Shown: in pieces, positions 1,768 to 13,415 of the stretch
Layout: every line of letters starts with the position of its first letter
How positions within the stretch are numbered: position 1 is the first letter of the stretch
From: a virus
Length of the DNA stretch: 35,880 bases
UHGV virus genome: UHGV-0165226
Strand: one strand, 5' to 3'
Program-made: the position numbers and the translations under genes
The notes under the pieces: model-generated
What the model saw: only the letters and a program-made list of their open reading frames with translations
Databases searched by the model: none
What the model was told of the DNA's origin: nothing

Positions 1768-1825
1768 AAATTTAACTGTATATGTAACCAGTAATCAATG
1801 TGTGATTACTATGAAACATACATTG

Positions 1826-3502
1826 CTAAGCAACATGTAGTTCATCGTTGGCGGAAGTGGCTGCTTTGCGCTCCTGCTCAATAGCTAGAGACTCTCTATA
1901 TTCTTTCGCCTCTGCAAACATTGTCCAGTGGGCGTTGATGTTCATGTCTTCAATAACTGATTTGATTTCTTTTAAATTTACGTTAAAAAACTCTTTTCGT
2001 GAGTTAATTTTATTGACCTGCTTTTCGTTGAAAACTTTATGCAGATGGTTTTCTAATGATGGTGCATCATCACTATAAATCATCGCATGAACATCGAACG
2101 AAAAAGGAACACTAGCATCTCCGAGTTCACGAACACGATCAAGTGGTTCAAGGCGGCGTGTCATTCCAATTTTATATACATCTTCGCCAAATGAACCAAT
2201 ATTACTAATGATATAGACGTGGCCTGATCTGGTTTGTTGAGCCATAGAAATAGCTCGTTGATTTTTAGCTTCAGCTTCTTCATATTTTAACTGTAGTTCA
2301 GCTATTTTTTGCTCTAAAGCTAAGCGTTGTTCTTCATTTGCAAGCATAAGTTCTTTCGTTGCTTTATTTATAGCTTGCTGAATAGCTTTTTCTTCTTTTT
2401 CAGCTTCTTTTATCGCTTTTTCATATTCTCTACGAGCTCTTTCCTCTTCACGAAGCTGTTCTTTAATCCTTCTTTGCTCTTCTTTTTCTTCGAGCATAAT
2501 TTCATTAACTGCTACACCCCATTTTAGCTCGTTGAGTCTTGCCTGAAGATAGATGTCACTTATTTTTGCGGACCTAAAGGCAGAGCCATTGTAATTTACT
2601 AGTTGAAATGCATCTTTTATTTCTTGGGAAAGTTTTCCAAAATTGTTGTGTTTGACTTTTGATAAAATACTGTCAACTCTTCCATTGAAGGCATCCAAAA
2701 CAAAGTTTATGGCAGTATTACGCCTGTTTTGCTCAACATAATCACACGAAGCAGCTTTATTAGTTTTTATTAATGATTTGGTTAACTCTCTGGCTTTTTG
2801 TAATTCCTTGCCTGCATCTGTAAATTCATAATTTTCTGCCAGCTCATCAAGTACACTACGGTTAGGGATGATCCATTCATCACCATAACCTTCAATTTTA
2901 TTTTTCATTGATTTTGCAACTGCTTCATATTTTTCTGCAAACTCTTTAGCTTCATATGCTGAACCAGCAATCTCCTTTGCTCTTTCTTCTGCATCAGAAA
3001 TAATTTTTACTGCATTGTCATTAGCATTTGAGATTAGCTCATTTGCTTTATTATTAGCATTATCAAGACGTTCTTTGGCTTTCAGGCGTGCATCGCGAGC
3101 GTCTTTGGTGATTGCTATAGCTTCGCTATTAGCGTTGCTTATTGTCATCTGAGCTTGATAATTTGCTTCGTTTACTGTTTTAGCCGCCTTAATTTGGGCT
3201 TCATCTATTTTTTGCTTGGCTATTGAGTCCGCATTTTTTATCTTATTCTCTGCATCCATTACTGCGCTGTGCAATTCTTCGTATTGCCACAATGGTGCTG
3301 CTCGCCCTTCAAGCTCTGATAATTCTCGTACGGTCTGTGCTAGTTTTTCTTGATTTTCAACCAGTTGGTTAGAAAGGGCTATGTTGTTAGCTGTCAGGTT
3401 ATCTATAGCCGCTTTGTGTTTTTTACTTTGTTTAAATAATATTACAGCTAGAACAGGGGCGAGAAATGCTAATAAGAGTATAACGATGGCAAATGAATTC
3501 AT
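1826..3502 (-). CDS. Cargo protein: N-terminal transmembrane anchor, long coiled coil, C-terminal T5orf172/GIY-YIG-like domain (DUF4041-type architecture)
   Basis: 558-aa ORF, ATG at 3502 with AAGGA upstream. Hydrophobic N-terminus (FAIVILLLAFLAPVLAVILF), about 300 aa of K/E/A-rich heptad-like sequence, then GHVYIISNIGSFGEDVYKIGMTRRLEPLDRVRELGD...FDVHAMIYSDDAPSLENHLHKVF, which resembles the T5orf172/MUG113 motif. Strongly AT-rich relative to neighbours. Confidence 0.75.
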   Translation of the reverse strand: MNSFAIVILLLAFLAPVLAVILFKQSKKHKAAIDNLTANNIALSNQLVENQEKLAQTVRELSELEGRAAPLWQYEELHSAVMDAENKIKNADSIAKQKIDEAQIKAAKTVNEANYQAQMTISNANSEAIAITKDARDARLKAKERLDNANNKANELISNANDNAVKIISDAEERAKEIAGSAYEAKEFAEKYEAVAKSMKNKIEGYGDEWIIPNRSVLDELAENYEFTDAGKELQKARELTKSLIKTNKAASCDYVEQNRRNTAINFVLDAFNGRVDSILSKVKHNNFGKLSQEIKDAFQLVNYNGSAFRSAKISDIYLQARLNELKWGVAVNEIMLEEKEEQRRIKEQLREEERARREYEKAIKEAEKEEKAIQQAINKATKELMLANEEQRLALEQKIAELQLKYEEAEAKNQRAISMAQQTRSGHVYIISNIGSFGEDVYKIGMTRRLEPLDRVRELGDASVPFSFDVHAMIYSDDAPSLENHLHKVFNEKQVNKINSRKEFFNVNLKEIKSVIEDMNINAHWTMFAEAKEYRESLAIEQERKAATSANDELHVA

Positions 3503-9534: not shown

Positions 9535-9626
9535 TTACGCGGGTTAACAATTCGTGCTCTTAATAATACCAGGCATATCAGGCCGATGAACGTAAAAAAA
9601 CGTTTTACATCAGTAAGATTATTATA

Positions 9627-9646
9627 TACTGTAAATATAAACAGTA
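9627..9646 (+). promoter_or_regulatory. LexA operator (SOS box)
   Basis: TACTGTAAATATAAACAGTA fits CTGT-N8-ACAG with the AT-rich spacer of the E. coli LexA consensus; a half-site (TGTATACAGT) follows. About 40 bp upstream of the Tum/DinI-like genes. Confidence 0.7.
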
Positions 9647-9686
9647 GTTATGTATACAGTATTGTTTTGGTGTCATAGGAGGAAAG

Positions 9687-9875
9687 ATGCAGGACTATTT
9701 TTTGGAGTCTTTGAAGCTTCAGCGCATTGATTTTTTTCTTAAGCTTGTAGCGGCTAGTGAGTGTAGTGATGAAGAGAAGGGGCTGGCTCTGCAGTGGGTT
9801 TCTGAATTGACTGATGAACTTATGGCAAAAATCAGAAGCCACGAATACAACCGCTCAATGGATGTCATCAGCTGA
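9687..9875 (+). CDS. Small SOS-controlled protein, possibly the N-terminal part of a Tum-like antirepressor
   Basis: 62-aa ORF, ATG at 9687 with AGGAGG at 9677..9682, directly downstream of the LexA box. Confidence 0.5.
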   Translation: MQDYFLESLKLQRIDFFLKLVAASECSDEEKGLALQWVSELTDELMAKIRSHEYNRSMDVIS

Positions 9876-9885
9876 GGTGACTTTT

Positions 9886-10119
9886 ATGCGCATTGAAATA
9901 ATGATCGATAAAGAGCAGAAGATTAGCCAGTCTACCCTGGACGCCCTTGAATCCGAGCTTTACCGCAATCTGCGCCCCCTGTATCCCAAAACGGTAATTC
10001 GTATCCGAAAAGGTAGCTCTAACGGTGTGGAACTGACCGGACTGCAACTGGACGAAGAAAGAAAACAAGTGATGAAAATTATGCAGAAGGTGTGGGAAGA
10101 CGACAGCTGGCTGCATTAA
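9886..10119 (+). CDS. DinI-family protein (Tum/DinI-like, SOS-induced)
   Basis: 77 aa starting MRIEIMIDKEQ...LDALESEL...VWEDDSWL, resembling DinI (MRIEVTIAK...); ATG at 9886 with GAGGTGA upstream. The ORF frame is open back to 9814. Confidence 0.75.
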   Translation: MRIEIMIDKEQKISQSTLDALESELYRNLRPLYPKTVIRIRKGSSNGVELTGLQLDEERKQVMKIMQKVWEDDSWLH

Positions 10120-10125
10120 GAAACG

Positions 10126-10160
10126 TTGCTGGCATCAGTACTTGATTCTGAAGCCAGCAA
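10126..10160. terminator. Hairpin between the convergent DinI-like gene and the cargo operon
   Basis: TTGCTGGC (10126..10133) pairs with GCCAGCAA (10153..10160), with an extra CAG/CTG pairing inside the loop. No strong U-tract. Confidence 0.4.
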
Positions 10161-10208
10161 GGTTGAACAACGAGCAGGGCGAGGCGTTAGTGTTATCATC
10201 AAAGAATT

Positions 10209-10766
10209 TCACATAAACATCTGGATTTGCTCGTTTTTTAGTTGGTTGATTTTTTCGCGCAATCTGATCTTTTCATCAGCTTTTTCCAAAGAGGCTGGTG
10301 ACATGCAGTTAATCAAAGCGTCAAGGTGCTCTGGAGATTTGATAATAAAGAACTTTTTGTATTTATTAACAAAAACGACAGAGCATTTTTTACGTTTAAG
10401 AAGCTCAATCACGTTACTCAGAGTACCCGTGCTCTTCGTATCCCAAACCATTAATCCATAATCGGCTTCTTCTGCCATTTTGAGATCTTTCGCAGTGAAA
10501 AACGCGCGAGTGCCGGCTGCATGGCTAGTACTTACTACATGTACAGGCCATGAGCCAAGATTATTGCGCGGTTTTTCTGAGCTACTGAATACTGTGGCTT
10601 TTTTACATCCAAGTTCTAGCAATACGCGTTGAACAGATGAATCAACACCATTGGCATCACCAACTACAATACGAAAACGCGAGTTAACAATTTTTTTCAG
10701 ACGATCCACGATGAGTGTGTCAAGGTTTTTGATGGTTATTGAACCAGCAACAAATACCGTAGTCAT
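10209..10766 (-). CDS. SLOG/DprA-LOG-like Rossmann-fold protein (cargo operon, gene 2)
   Basis: ATG at 10766 with GGAG 6 nt upstream, 2 nt after the stop of the PRTase gene; about 185 aa. Core VFVAGS...IVVGDANGVDSSVQRV...ATVF resembles the glycine-rich nucleotide-binding loop of DprA/Smf/LOG (SLOG) proteins. AT-rich. Confidence 0.7.
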   Translation of the reverse strand: MTTVFVAGSITIKNLDTLIVDRLKKIVNSRFRIVVGDANGVDSSVQRVLLELGCKKATVFSSSEKPRNNLGSWPVHVVSTSHAAGTRAFFTAKDLKMAEEADYGLMVWDTKSTGTLSNVIELLKRKKCSVVFVNKYKKFFIIKSPEHLDALINCMSPASLEKADEKIRLREKINQLKNEQIQMFM

Positions 10767-10768
10767 CA

Positions 10769-11350
10769 CTATCTCCAAGTCAAAGCTGCAACATAAATGC
10801 TTCTAACCTTAGTATAATCGTTTAGCACAGCACAAGCAGCCTCCATAGATGCGCCTGTATGGTAGAGGTCGTCAATGATAAGGACATTCCAGTTGCCATT
10901 ATTCTCAATACTGTCATTAACAGAGAACGAATTACCCAGCGCCGTGATTTTCTCTTCTTTTGTATTCAGGTTCTTTAGCGAAGCCCCGCCGGGGGCTTTC
11001 AACAAGAGGTCATCGAAGCATGGTTTGCCAACTAGTTTGGCTAGTTCCTGAGCTATTTCGGTCACTGGCTGGCGTGCACGCTGATTAGATGCAGCCATTG
11101 GAACGATAAACCCGACATTGCTGAAATGAGGAAAGGCATGCTCTGCTAGGCATTGGGCTAAAGGCTTAACTTGTGACCAATCGTCACGGTATTTAAGCTG
11201 GAAAAGAGATTCGCCTACCTCAGTACGCTCAGTCTCAAACCGCATATGTCCCCACTCATCGTAACCAATGGGAATGCTGCGGATGCTGTGTTTATCCATC
11301 GCAAGACCTAATTCCCAATTTCCAACAATCTGTTTTATGTTGACTTTCAT
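10769..11350 (-). CDS. Phosphoribosyltransferase (PRTase)-like protein (cargo operon, gene 1)
   Basis: 193 aa, ATG at 11350. C-terminal NVLIIDDLYHTGASMEAA matches the type I PRTase PRPP-binding loop (hydrophobic run, two acidic residues, T-G-A-S). No N-terminal Cys4 zinc finger. Confidence 0.75.
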   Translation of the reverse strand: MKVNIKQIVGNWELGLAMDKHSIRSIPIGYDEWGHMRFETERTEVGESLFQLKYRDDWSQVKPLAQCLAEHAFPHFSNVGFIVPMAASNQRARQPVTEIAQELAKLVGKPCFDDLLLKAPGGASLKNLNTKEEKITALGNSFSVNDSIENNGNWNVLIIDDLYHTGASMEAACAVLNDYTKVRSIYVAALTWR

Positions 11351-11614
11351 GGCTCACCGTTTGCTGTGTAAAACACCAAAGATTACCTCTTGTTATATTT
11401 GGTGAAAGCGAAAGTTTCATTTTTTGCAGTGGAGATCAAATGTTACTCCGTGAACATTTTTAGCATGTGGCCTCGCTACACGGTTTGGCGTAACTACTGC
11501 ATGTCTATACTGCATGAATCCGCATGATCGTTTAAGGATCGCTCTAGTTGGGGCCTGCTAGGTATGGCGGGCTTTTGCTTATGTCATGCAGGTGCATGAA
11601 AACCACTATATAAA

Positions 11615-11717: not shown

Positions 11718-13415
11718 ATGCATAGAATTGTTAAAGCTCATCTTGATAACTTCGTGAAAAGTCACGGTATTGAAAATCATCAAGAGGACACGCAGTTCGA
11801 GCTATTTTGTAATAAAGCTTTGCTGTCTTCTCGTATAAGTATGGATTATGAAATTGACGATGTAACAACCGGGGCTGGTGATGATGGCATGGATGGTGTT
11901 GCCATCATAATTGATGAAGAATTGTGTATATCTTCTGAAGATGCTACTTCAATATTTTCCTCATTACGTAAAAATCATGATGTTGATATTGTTTTCATTC
12001 AATCAAAGCGTAGTGAGTCTTTTGATTTAGGTGATTTTTTAAAGTTTAAAGCTTCCGTTTTTAGATTTATAGAGGATTCTCCTTACTTATGTGTGGATGA
12101 AATTCAAAAAAATGCAAGGGAAGTTTTTGATGTCATAATAAAAAATGTACCTAAGATAAGAGGTGGGCGACCAACTTTTACTGCTAAATATGTTGCAACT
12201 GGTTTATATAAAAAACCTAAAGAGTTAGAGAATGCTCGGAAGTTATTTGCAAAAGAAATTGACGAGTTGGGATATTTCTGTAATGTTAGCGTTGAGTTTG
12301 TTGATCGTGATGAATTAACACGTACTTGGATTGATACTTATTCAGTTGTCAATGCTGAATTGCCATTATTTAGTAATGCACCACTTCCCAAAATTAATGG
12401 TATAGAAGAAGCTTATCTTGCTGTCGTTAAAGCAAAGGATTTTGTTGGTAATTTATTGATGACGGACGAGGGGTCTCTCCGTAATCATGTTTTTGTTGAG
12501 AACGTCCGGGCGTTCTTGGGAATTGATAATCCTGTTAACGCATCGATTGCTGAGACAATTAAAAATAAAGATGCCGCTTCACGATTTCCTGTTTTAAATA
12601 ATGGAATAACAATTGTTAGTCCGGATGTAAAACTTCAAGGGAGTATTTTACATCTAGAAAATTTTCAGATAGTTAATGGCTGTCAGACATCAAATGTGCT
12701 TTACGAATGCCGCGATTCCTTAGATGATACGATGATGGTTAACTTGAAAGTCGTAGAGACATTAAACGAAGATGTTTTTTCAGAATTGGTTCGAGCGACT
12801 AACAGTCAGACTAAGGTTGATGAGACTCAGTTCTATTCTCTTCGTCCAATAATAAAGAAAGTAGAAGCGTACTTTGATACTTATGAAGGGCAGGATGGTC
12901 GTTTATATTTAGAAAGACGTGAAAGACAATTTATCGGTAGAGATATACCTGCAGTTAGAGTATTTTCAGTTCATATGGCAGCTAAATGTGTAGCAGCTAT
13001 GTTCTTCCGTCGGCCAGATCTTTCATATAGATACCCTAAAAAAATGTATGAATTGTTGGCTGAGAAAATATTTTCTAATGATACCAAGGAGATTGTATTT
13101 TATTCAGCATGTTTAACATTATATAGATTACACTTACTTACTTCTAATGCTGATATTCCACAAAATATCAGGAAGTATAAATGGCATTTAATGGCGGTAG
13201 TTGGTGCTTTAATTGCCGGAAAGGATGTGCCTAATTTTGGCTCTAAGAAAATGGATGCGTATTGTAATAAAATCATCACTGAAATGACAAAGCATGGTGA
13301 TAAAATAAAAGCTACTTTCCAGAAGGCTGTTGATATTGTTTTGTCAATTGATGATATCACTGATGATAGAATGAAAAGGCAAGCTATTTTAGAGGAAATG
13401 CTTGCCAAGATTTAA
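11718..13415 (+). CDS. AIPR-family (abortive-infection phage-resistance-like) protein
   Basis: 565 aa, ATG at 11718. Central motif VLNNGITIV...FQIVNGCQTS matches the AIPR family signature (NG...QT). Very AT-rich. Confidence 0.75.
   Translation: MHRIVKAHLDNFVKSHGIENHQEDTQFELFCNKALLSSRISMDYEIDDVTTGAGDDGMDGVAIIIDEELCISSEDATSIFSSLRKNHDVDIVFIQSKRSESFDLGDFLKFKASVFRFIEDSPYLCVDEIQKNAREVFDVIIKNVPKIRGGRPTFTAKYVATGLYKKPKELENARKLFAKEIDELGYFCNVSVEFVDRDELTRTWIDTYSVVNAELPLFSNAPLPKINGIEEAYLAVVKAKDFVGNLLMTDEGSLRNHVFVENVRAFLGIDNPVNASIAETIKNKDAASRFPVLNNGITIVSPDVKLQGSILHLENFQIVNGCQTSNVLYECRDSLDDTMMVNLKVVETLNEDVFSELVRATNSQTKVDETQFYSLRPIIKKVEAYFDTYEGQDGRLYLERRERQFIGRDIPAVRVFSVHMAAKCVAAMFFRRPDLSYRYPKKMYELLAEKIFSNDTKEIVFYSACLTLYRLHLLTSNADIPQNIRKYKWHLMAVVGALIAGKDVPNFGSKKMDAYCNKIITEMTKHGDKIKATFQKAVDIVLSIDDITDDRMKRQAILEEMLAKI

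Follow-up and report, generated by a model that had tools for sequence, protein, structure and literature searches.

A probable LexA-repressed tumA-tumB-like SOS operon in a P2-like phage genome with a 186-type switch

Genes and features of the locus

The DNA analysed here, in the following called the window, is a stretch of 35,880 nucleotides of the virus genome UHGV-0165226. Downstream of a P2 A-like replication gene it carries a small module of two open reading frames, ORF1 and ORF2, preceded by a LexA (SOS) box and followed by a structured 3' region (Table 1). A preliminary description of the same DNA had reported a near-consensus SOS box some 40 bp before an ORF of 62 amino acids (aa), with a DinI-family ORF 10 bp further on. 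Both observations hold: the distance between the end of box 1 and the start codon of ORF1 is 40 bp, and 10 nt separate the stop codon of ORF1 from the start codon of ORF2. Phage 186's Tum protein, for which a length of about 146 aa had been given, indeed has 146 aa in the record of that phage (NC_001317).

Table 1 Features of the module and of its genomic surroundings (positions in the window)
Feature	Position	Strand	Basis or remark
cI, 186-type immunity repressor gene, 197 aa	3523-4119	-	Pfam Phage_CI_repr and Phage_CI_C; 32 % identical to 186 CI
P2 A-like replication gene, 804 aa	7120-9534		Position upstream of the module
Putative -35 hexamer of the tum promoter, TTTACA	9604-9609	+	Analogy with 186 p95, and conservation
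LexA (SOS) box 1	9627-9646	+	TACTGTAAATATAAACAGTA; 2 mismatches to the consensus
LexA box 2, candidate	9642-9661	+	CAGTAGTTATGTATACAGTA; degenerate left arm; 5-bp overlap with box 1
RBS of ORF1, AGGAGG	9677-9682	+	Read from the sequence; AGGAGG(G/A)AA in relatives
ORF1, putative tumA-like antirepressor gene, 62 aa, ATG start, TGA stop (9873-9875)	9687-9875	+	Homologue of Fels-2 STM2728
RBS of ORF2, GAGGTG, overlapping the TGA stop of ORF1	9874-9879	+	Read from the sequence
ORF2, tumB-like DinI-family gene, 77 aa, ATG start	9886-10119	+	Pfam DinI
Structured 3' region: hairpin (10126-10160) and long hairpin (~10169-10233), then T6 (10234-10239)	10126-10239	+	RNA folding

Positions 1-25000 of the window are 97.5 % identical over 83 % to Escherichia phage vB_EcoM-813R9, a member of the Peduoviridae, and these first 25 kb are also approximately 96 % identical to Klebsiella Peduoviridae. 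The ORF1 protein presumably has the product of the cI gene as its target. Apl/Cox-like and CII-like genes flank cI, which agrees with the 186-sized CI and CII of the preliminary description, and an integrase gene is also located upstream of the module in the window. The module follows gene A, as it does in phages 186, PSP3, and Fels-2, and is accompanied by CI, Apl, and CII of the 186 type, the location expected of a 186-type tum operon. Judged by these similarities, the host element is a P2-like (Peduoviridae) prophage of the Fels-2/PSP3 type with a 186-type switch.

The product of ORF2 matches the Pfam DinI profile (PF06183) over its entire length (positions 1-63 of 63) with an E-value of 6.6e-23 and a score of 81.3 bits, the cut-off being 24.2, and it matches the structure of E. 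coli DinI (1GHH) with an E-value of 2.7e-6. The score of 42.7 bits obtained with NF007893, the NCBIfam equivalog model of the host DinI, is below the cut-off of that model (111). According to these profile scores, ORF2 is a phage DinI-like paralogue and not the chromosomal DinI. It is 100 % identical to STM2726.1 of Fels-2 and 78 % identical to TumB of PSP3. GGGG or GAGG motifs are present in relatives at the position of its ribosome-binding site.

RNA folding of the stretch downstream of ORF2 (positions 10110-10250) gave a free energy of -44.2 kcal/mol (z=-3.37), and none of 200 shuffled sequences folded equally well. A convergent gene extends with its 3' end into the structured stretch. The hairpins and the run of T residues that follows them are likely to function as the terminator of the operon.

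No family for ORF1 was present in Pfam, NCBIfam, or the PDB, and the search of PDB sequences with an ORF1 profile did not give a meaningful match. PGAP labels its product as "hypothetical protein", and PHROGs lists it under "unknown function". The protein is 96.8 % identical to STM2728 of Fels-2, and its homologues form 493 protein clusters, with 87 representatives at 50 % identity. The AlphaFold model of ORF1 is a two-helix hairpin (helices 2-23 and 28-61; pLDDT 87.9) in which the conserved cysteine is located in the turn. Helical hairpins of this kind match nonspecifically in fold searches.

Origin of the split layout

The start codons of ORF1 and ORF2 are 199 nt apart, which is equivalent to a frame offset of +1, and, read backwards, the frame of ORF2 stays open as far as an ATG at position 9814, as had been observed before. 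Four explanations had been put forward for this division: two separate proteins, a frameshift mutation, a sequencing error, or recoding. The first of these stands. The other three are excluded because the layout is conserved, the two ORFs have separate ribosome-binding sites, and the frame, the spacer, and the stop codon vary among relatives.

The layout is widespread. A 661-bp region comprising the module matches 67 phage records, and a tblastn search with the 62-aa ORF yielded 66 phage records, including those of Fels-2, SopEPhi, RE2010, and many Klebsiella phages. Among genomes sampled at one per species, ORF1 is present at 33 loci. A DinI gene directly follows ORF1 in 20 of these loci; it is partial in three of them (L016, L019, and L033) and intact in the others, while ORF1 is on its own in the remaining 13. 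Of 5426 complete E. coli genomes, 1124 contain the 536-bp module, the genes of which are annotated by PGAP as "hypothetical protein" and "DinI-like family protein". The stop codon of ORF1 in relatives is TGA, TAG, or TAA, and the spacer between the ORFs is 9-12 nt in length. The distance from the start of ORF1 to that of ORF2 is 198, 199, 200, or 201 nt, so that all three frame relations occur.

The two ORFs could be the remnants of a broken tum gene of about 146 aa, interrupted by a frameshift or nonsense mutation or by an error in sequencing or assembly, since 62 and 77 aa together nearly equal the length of 186 Tum (146 aa) and the ORFs are in different frames at a distance of only 10 nt. 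This is very improbable, as the same layout is seen in the 66 phage records, in the 20 of 33 genomes, which belong to different genera, and in the 1124 E. coli genomes mentioned above; a sequencing error was rejected because of this prevalence. The annotation of PSP3 already distinguishes tumA and tumB, and both ORFs of the window have a Shine-Dalgarno sequence and an ATG of their own. An uninterrupted ORF of 140-146 aa differing by a single indel was not found in close relatives among the sequences examined. The 87 relatives of ORF1 obtained in a profile search of 1.84 billion representatives are, with few exceptions, standalone proteins of 55-75 aa, and even the homologues of the N-terminal half of the 186 type are mostly proteins of 63-91 aa, several of which have been named "Tum protein" by their source. 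ORF1 also evolves as a protein, with purifying selection acting as far as its own stop codon: variable columns are distributed over codon positions 1, 2, and 3 as 28/15/56, and the codon differences comprise 522 synonymous and 247 nonsynonymous ones.

A programmed +1 ribosomal frameshift near the stop codon of ORF1, by which a fused Tum-like protein would be made alongside the two separate products, has equally little to recommend it. In the window, the 72 nt ahead of the ORF2 ATG are open in the frame of ORF2, overlapping the end of ORF1, and 186 makes both a long and a short form of Tum. The variation among relatives in the distance between the start codons, with all three frames represented, and in the stop codon of ORF1 is at odds with it and led to the rejection of a fusion by recoding. 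In L004 and L009, two loci that have the same +1 offset as the window, a stop codon in the frame of ORF2 is located 3 nt upstream of the ATG of ORF2, and in several other loci this frame is open for just 6-12 nt before the ATG. Reading of the window sequence did not reveal a frameshift-prone site near the stop codon of ORF1. A hairpin at the junction (9864-9881), comprising the ORF1 stop codon and the ORF2 ribosome-binding site, was also considered as an element for translational coupling or attenuation; it was rejected, as it is not significant (z=-1.15, with 27 of 200 shuffled sequences folding as well) and is absent in relatives.

The split of tum in the window is thus natural, and the module specifies two separate proteins. 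The single fused polypeptide of ~146 aa, the form found in 186, is absent from the window, the layout of which is the split form of PSP3 and Fels-2. The fused Tum of 186 is the unusual form, separate small proteins being the norm.

Relationship to Tum and to other phage antirepressor operons

Lemire, Figueroa-Bossi and Bossi (2011; PMC3121763) likened Tum to a fusion of an antirepressor with DinI and pointed out that tum is split in two in Fels-2 and PSP3. A passage in the same article, in which Bunny et al. 2002 is cited along with a personal communication, describes the upstream gene of PSP3 as an antirepressor. The UV-inducibility of 186, PSP3, Fels-2, and SopEPhi has been attributed to tum (PMC2771037), and Tum of 186 sequesters CI once the promoter p95 has been derepressed from LexA (PMC7708051). 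The PSP3 record states that tumA is "similar to 5' end 186 tum; UV induction of prophage" and that tumB is "similar to dinI and 3' end of 186 tum"; the record of Fels-2 refers its DinI gene to TumB of PSP3. A literature search under the names tumA and tumB did not yield anything relevant.

The preliminary description had proposed a Tum/DinI-like module belonging to a 186-type switch, to be examined by alignment of both ORFs with Tum and DinI. The module is supported as such by ORF2, by the links of ORF1 to Tum, by the position after gene A, and by the presence of CI, Apl, and CII. In the alignment with 186 Tum, ORF2 corresponds to residues 71-145 (41 % identical, E=3e-24), so that the part directly downstream of ORF1 is DinI-like, as is expected of a tum operon. 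The homology of ORF1 to Tum was examined by means of profiles because BLASTP did not detect similarity of ORF1 to 186 Tum or to TumA of PSP3. With residues 1-70 of 186 Tum as the query, phrog_698, the family of ORF1, was retrieved with a value of 6.7e-6 in a colinear match covering positions 7-44 of both, and phrog_8554 with 3.3e-12. ORF1 itself matches phrog_8554 (1.1e-8) and phrog_1993, the family of the Tum N-terminal part (0.002). A comparison of the two families with hhalign gave an ungapped alignment of positions 4-43 with 4-43 (P=0.002). In a graded alignment by way of intermediate family members, the residues shared are E7, the motif (Q/E)R(I/V) at 12-14 (containing R13), C26, and A-L...E-L around position 40 (E40). 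These profile links, which are of modest strength, support the view that ORF1 is remotely homologous to, and colinear with, the N-terminal half of 186 Tum. On the same type of evidence, ORF1 and TumA of PSP3 are members of different subfamilies within one superfamily.

The closest known counterparts of the module are STM2728/STM2726.1 of Fels-2 and the corresponding genes of SopEPhi, RE2010, and Klebsiella P2-like phages, in which the same gene pair is present in the same order after gpA. Fels-2 differs from the window in its CI, which is 41.5 % identical to that of the window overall and 66 % in the N-terminal domain, and in what lies downstream, where a 243-aa ORF takes the place of the convergent defence-like genes of the window. 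PSP3 has a split tumA/tumB, a LexA box, and the position after gene A in common with the window, but its spacer is 3 nt long and it has a single LexA box, with 15 mismatches at the position of the second one. In 186, tum also follows gene A and its product acts on a 186-type CI, the promoter is repressed by LexA, the -10 hexamer is the left arm of the LexA box, and an antirepressor part precedes a DinI-like part. Unlike the module of the window, however, tum of 186 encodes one polypeptide of 146 aa with a linker of ~20 aa, and internal starts also give the DinI-like part; according to the 186 record, which annotates p95 and a LexA site as well, one of these starts, a GTG, gives the DinI-like 77 aa alone. 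The LexA box of 186 is single, and orf97, located downstream in 186, is absent in the window.

The dinI-gfoA/gftA operons of Gifsy-1, -2, and -3 are also controlled by LexA and combine a DinI homologue with a small antirepressor binding to a non-cleavable repressor (PMC3121763). In these operons dinI comes first, the opposite of the order in the window, and the phages are lambdoid, not P2-like. Their repressors belong to a different family (gfoR/gtgR, of the DicA/RacR group), according to the description in PMC3121763.

Operator, induction, and the reach of TumA

LexA boxes were scored by the number of mismatches to the palindromic consensus TACTGTATATATATACAGTA and by identity to colicin operators. 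Box 1 is the sole site in the 35.9-kb window with at most three mismatches to the consensus, and such sites did not occur in 100 shuffled sequences. It is kept at the same position in 31 of the 33 genome loci and also in 120 IMG/VR contigs. The left arm of the box, TACTGT (9627-9632), is at the same time the putative -10 hexamer, located 17 nt downstream of the hexamer TTTACA, which is putatively the -35 of the tum promoter. TTTACA and the 17-nt distance are kept in nearly all of the ~30 species loci, while the letters of the spacer vary, and the geometry matches that of the annotated p95 promoter of 186 (TTCACA, 18 nt, TACTGT). A generic promoter scan of the window did not call a promoter at TTTACA/TACTGT, because TACTGT agrees with TATAAT at only three of six positions. 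A LexA box overlapping a putative promoter is thus located directly upstream of ORF1, as in a 186-type tum SOS operon.

The box reported in the preliminary description stands, although a second, weaker box that overlaps it (Table 1) had been overlooked. Box 2 has six mismatches to the consensus in the window, one of them at the G of the left CTG-equivalent. Among the 31 loci, 20 were scored as having a second box, with 3-6 mismatches; relatives in Pantoea, Erwinia, and Tatumella have a single box only, as do 186 and PSP3. The second boxes of the colicin N and pesticin operators have five and six mismatches, respectively, when counted by the same method, and colicin operators bind two LexA dimers (PMC2994835). 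Over positions 9625-9663, 33 of 39 bases of the window operator are identical to those of the colicin N operator; for the operator of Fels-2, which is of the same putative double type, this number is 36 of 39. A 42-bp stretch of the promoter-operator of Fels-2 matches more than 1100 plasmids, and in the two matches that were inspected it is located directly upstream of the colicin N gene (cna) or the pesticin gene (pst). The colicin and pesticin operators have two LexA boxes offset by 15 bp, the same offset as between box 1 and the candidate box 2 of the window. They differ in that they drive bacteriocin genes on Col-type plasmids, and the sequence beyond the operator is unrelated to the phage locus. 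Moreover, box 2 has a weakened left arm in the window: the base at position 9646, in the overlap of the boxes, is an A in the window, whereas it is a G in Fels-2, in the commonest of the 120 IMG/VR contigs, and usually in relatives. This A completes the right arm of box 1 and changes the left arm of box 2 from GTGG to GTAG. The operator thus resembles, at the sequence level, the double overlapping LexA boxes of the colicin type, with box 2 as a candidate second LexA site.

The reading favoured here, to which we assign a probability of roughly 0.86, is that the region is a bicistronic tumA-tumB SOS operon, repressed by LexA, that would combine antirepression of CI with modulation of RecA. In an undamaged lysogen, LexA would be bound over the -10 hexamer and the start region, to box 1, which overlaps the -10 hexamer, and probably also to box 2, and the promoter would be shut. 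Upon DNA damage, RecA would be activated and LexA would cleave itself, allowing the operon to be transcribed. The TumA-like hairpin protein of 62 aa would then bind the 186-type CI and keep it from binding its operators. As CI is inactivated in this way, the lytic promoter would fire and the prophage would be induced. The TumB-like protein of 77 aa would be produced from its own start codon, either independently or by translational coupling across the 10-nt gap, and might modulate the activity of RecA filaments and thereby how strong or how long-lasting the SOS signal is. This role of TumB is the least certain step of the mechanism. Thirteen of the 33 loci do not have a DinI gene; TumB would therefore be dispensable for the core function. 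We infer LexA control and antirepressor activity, both described in the literature on 186, PSP3, and Fels-2, for the copy in the window, and the part of CI that would be contacted is likewise a proposal for this copy.

The amino acid sequence of TumA is conserved to a much higher degree than that of CI: TumA is 97-98 % identical in phages with a CI that is just 41-51 % identical to that of the window. In six such phages, the identity of TumA is 90.3 % for SopEPhi and 96.8-98.4 % for the other five, while their CI is 66-77 % identical to the window CI in the N-terminal DNA-binding domain and only 27-35 % in the C-terminal domain. For CI of 186, these values are 40 % and 22 %, respectively. One block of the N-terminal domain is almost invariant: SKST(L/M)A(N/T)R(Y/V)(L/M)RD.FPA(D/E)W(I/V)IQC.LETG. 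CP019275.1, in which TumA is 100 % identical and the CI match is limited to positions 7-80, was considered as a test of CI specificity and set aside, as its repressor gene is annotated as frameshifted.

A nearly invariant ORF1 next to a divergent CI is unexpected for an immunity-specific antirepressor, unless the conserved N-terminal domain is what is contacted. The same observation could be taken to mean that ORF1 is an SOS-induced small protein with another function, for instance as a modulator of a host process, and that the prophage is induced by another route. The lack of a curated family for ORF1, its labels in PGAP and PHROGs, and the lack of pairwise similarity to characterized Tum proteins would agree with this. 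Such a function is nevertheless unlikely given the profile homology of ORF1 to the non-DinI-like half of 186 Tum and the genomic position, LexA control, and downstream DinI partner that it has in common with tum and tumA. In addition, all seven phages examined that carry this type of ORF1 have a 186-type CI, with an N-terminal domain conserved at 66-77 %, and Fels-2, with its closely similar ORF1, is controlled by LexA in vivo and is induced when LexA is absent (PMC8072944). An antirepressor directed against CI thus remains the preferred function of the ORF1 protein. The pattern of TumA and CI conservation fits the hypothesis that TumA contacts the N-terminal domain of CI, with cross-induction as a possible consequence, albeit in a sample that is small and phylogenetically non-independent.

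More tentatively, and with a greater chance of being wrong than right, the sequence data could mean that TumA of the Fels-2 type is a broad-specificity antirepressor acting on the N-terminal domain of CI, that its expression is controlled by a two-box operator which colicin and pesticin plasmids share and may have exchanged, and that the change from G to A at position 9646 shifts the induction threshold. Neither a broad specificity of TumA nor an operator in common with colicins is mentioned in the searchable literature, outside which Bunny et al. 2002 lies. If true, one SOS-induced copy of TumA could cross-induce P2-like prophages with CI proteins that are 40-50 % identical.

The module as such is already known: it has been described in the literature and in the annotation of PSP3, and it is very common in Enterobacteriaceae. 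What it implies for the prophage of the window is that it would be SOS-inducible by the antirepressor route of 186 and Fels-2 and not by cleavage of its repressor. The analysis also reveals a gap in annotation, as the upstream gene does not have a name or a model in Pfam or NCBIfam and yet is present in about one-fifth of the complete E. coli genomes; a tumA-like gene is also carried by many Klebsiella and Salmonella prophages. The candidate double operator and the conservation of TumA offer small testable leads with respect to the induction threshold and to cross-talk between prophages. Naming the gene as a tumA-like antirepressor gene would allow inducible and non-inducible P2-like prophages to be separated by sequence alone.

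Region between int and cI

In Fels-2, a related P2-like phage, cI and int are adjacent, whereas in the window the repressor gene is separated from int by an inserted PD-Lambda-1-type defence gene, the product of which matches the Pfam families DUF4041, T5orf172, and MUG113. A second LexA-box-like site is located downstream of the stop codon of this gene, before a hairpin with a T5 run that borders directly on the start codon of int (1743), and the exact 20-mer was found again in eight IMG/VR contigs. In the cI regions of two Klebsiella phages (L040 and L041), the open frame upstream of cI was seen to encode an additional, partial copy of the N-terminal conserved motif (e.g., ANRYARDTFPADWVVICSMETGASIEWLAFG). 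Either duplication of an HTH fragment or the method used to extend the ORFs, in which case the copy is an artefact, may account for this.

Features of the int-cI and cargo regions (window positions)
Feature	Position	Strand	Remarks
LexA-box-like site AACTGTATATGTAACCAGTA	1774-1793		4 mismatches to consensus; CTG-N10-CAG intact
PD-Lambda-1-type defence gene (558 aa)	1826-3502	-	PADLOC 5.9e-120
Overlapping gene pair	10209-11350	-	convergent with tum operon
189-aa protein gene	10209-10778	-	weak DprA-like Pfam match (0.13)
PRTase-like protein gene	10769-11350	-	PADLOC ShosT 1.3e-8, PsyrT 1.7e-7
Weak LexA-like palindrome TACTGCATGTCTATACTGCA	11495-11514		5 mismatches to consensus; no CAG arm
AbiU/AIPR abortive-infection protein gene (565 aa)	11718-13415	+	PADLOC AbiU 4.4e-112

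Cargo downstream of the tum operon

The slot that is occupied by orf97 in phage 186 holds, in the window, two overlapping genes that look like a Shosta-type defence pair. For the 189-aa protein, the weak DprA-like match was the sole Pfam match obtained. The same cargo region carries the gene of an AbiU-type protein, which also matches Pfam AIPR (1.5e-43) and bears the PHROG label "Abi alpha-like". The LexA-like palindrome approximately 200 bp upstream of this gene is probably a chance occurrence.

Variation in the tum operator and in the DinI gene

Where the two LexA boxes of the tum operon overlap, the window carries a single-base variant, an A at position 9646. In a set of 120 viral contigs, the sequence seen most often has G at this position, and the exact 35-mer of the window was found in none of them. 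The whole module was matched at 100 % in E. coli NZ_CP138423.1.

The DinI-family gene is not a constant companion of tumA: in 13 of the 33 tumA-carrying loci, each from a different species, no DinI gene was present within 3 kb of the LexA-box-tumA unit (L006, L008, L017, L020, L025-L032, and L034). In three of these (L008, L020, and L034), tumA is directly followed by AACGTTGCTGGCGT, a sequence resembling AACGTTGCTGGCAT at 10122-10135, which in the window comes after the DinI-family gene tumB. This resemblance suggests that the DinI gene has been cleanly gained or lost.
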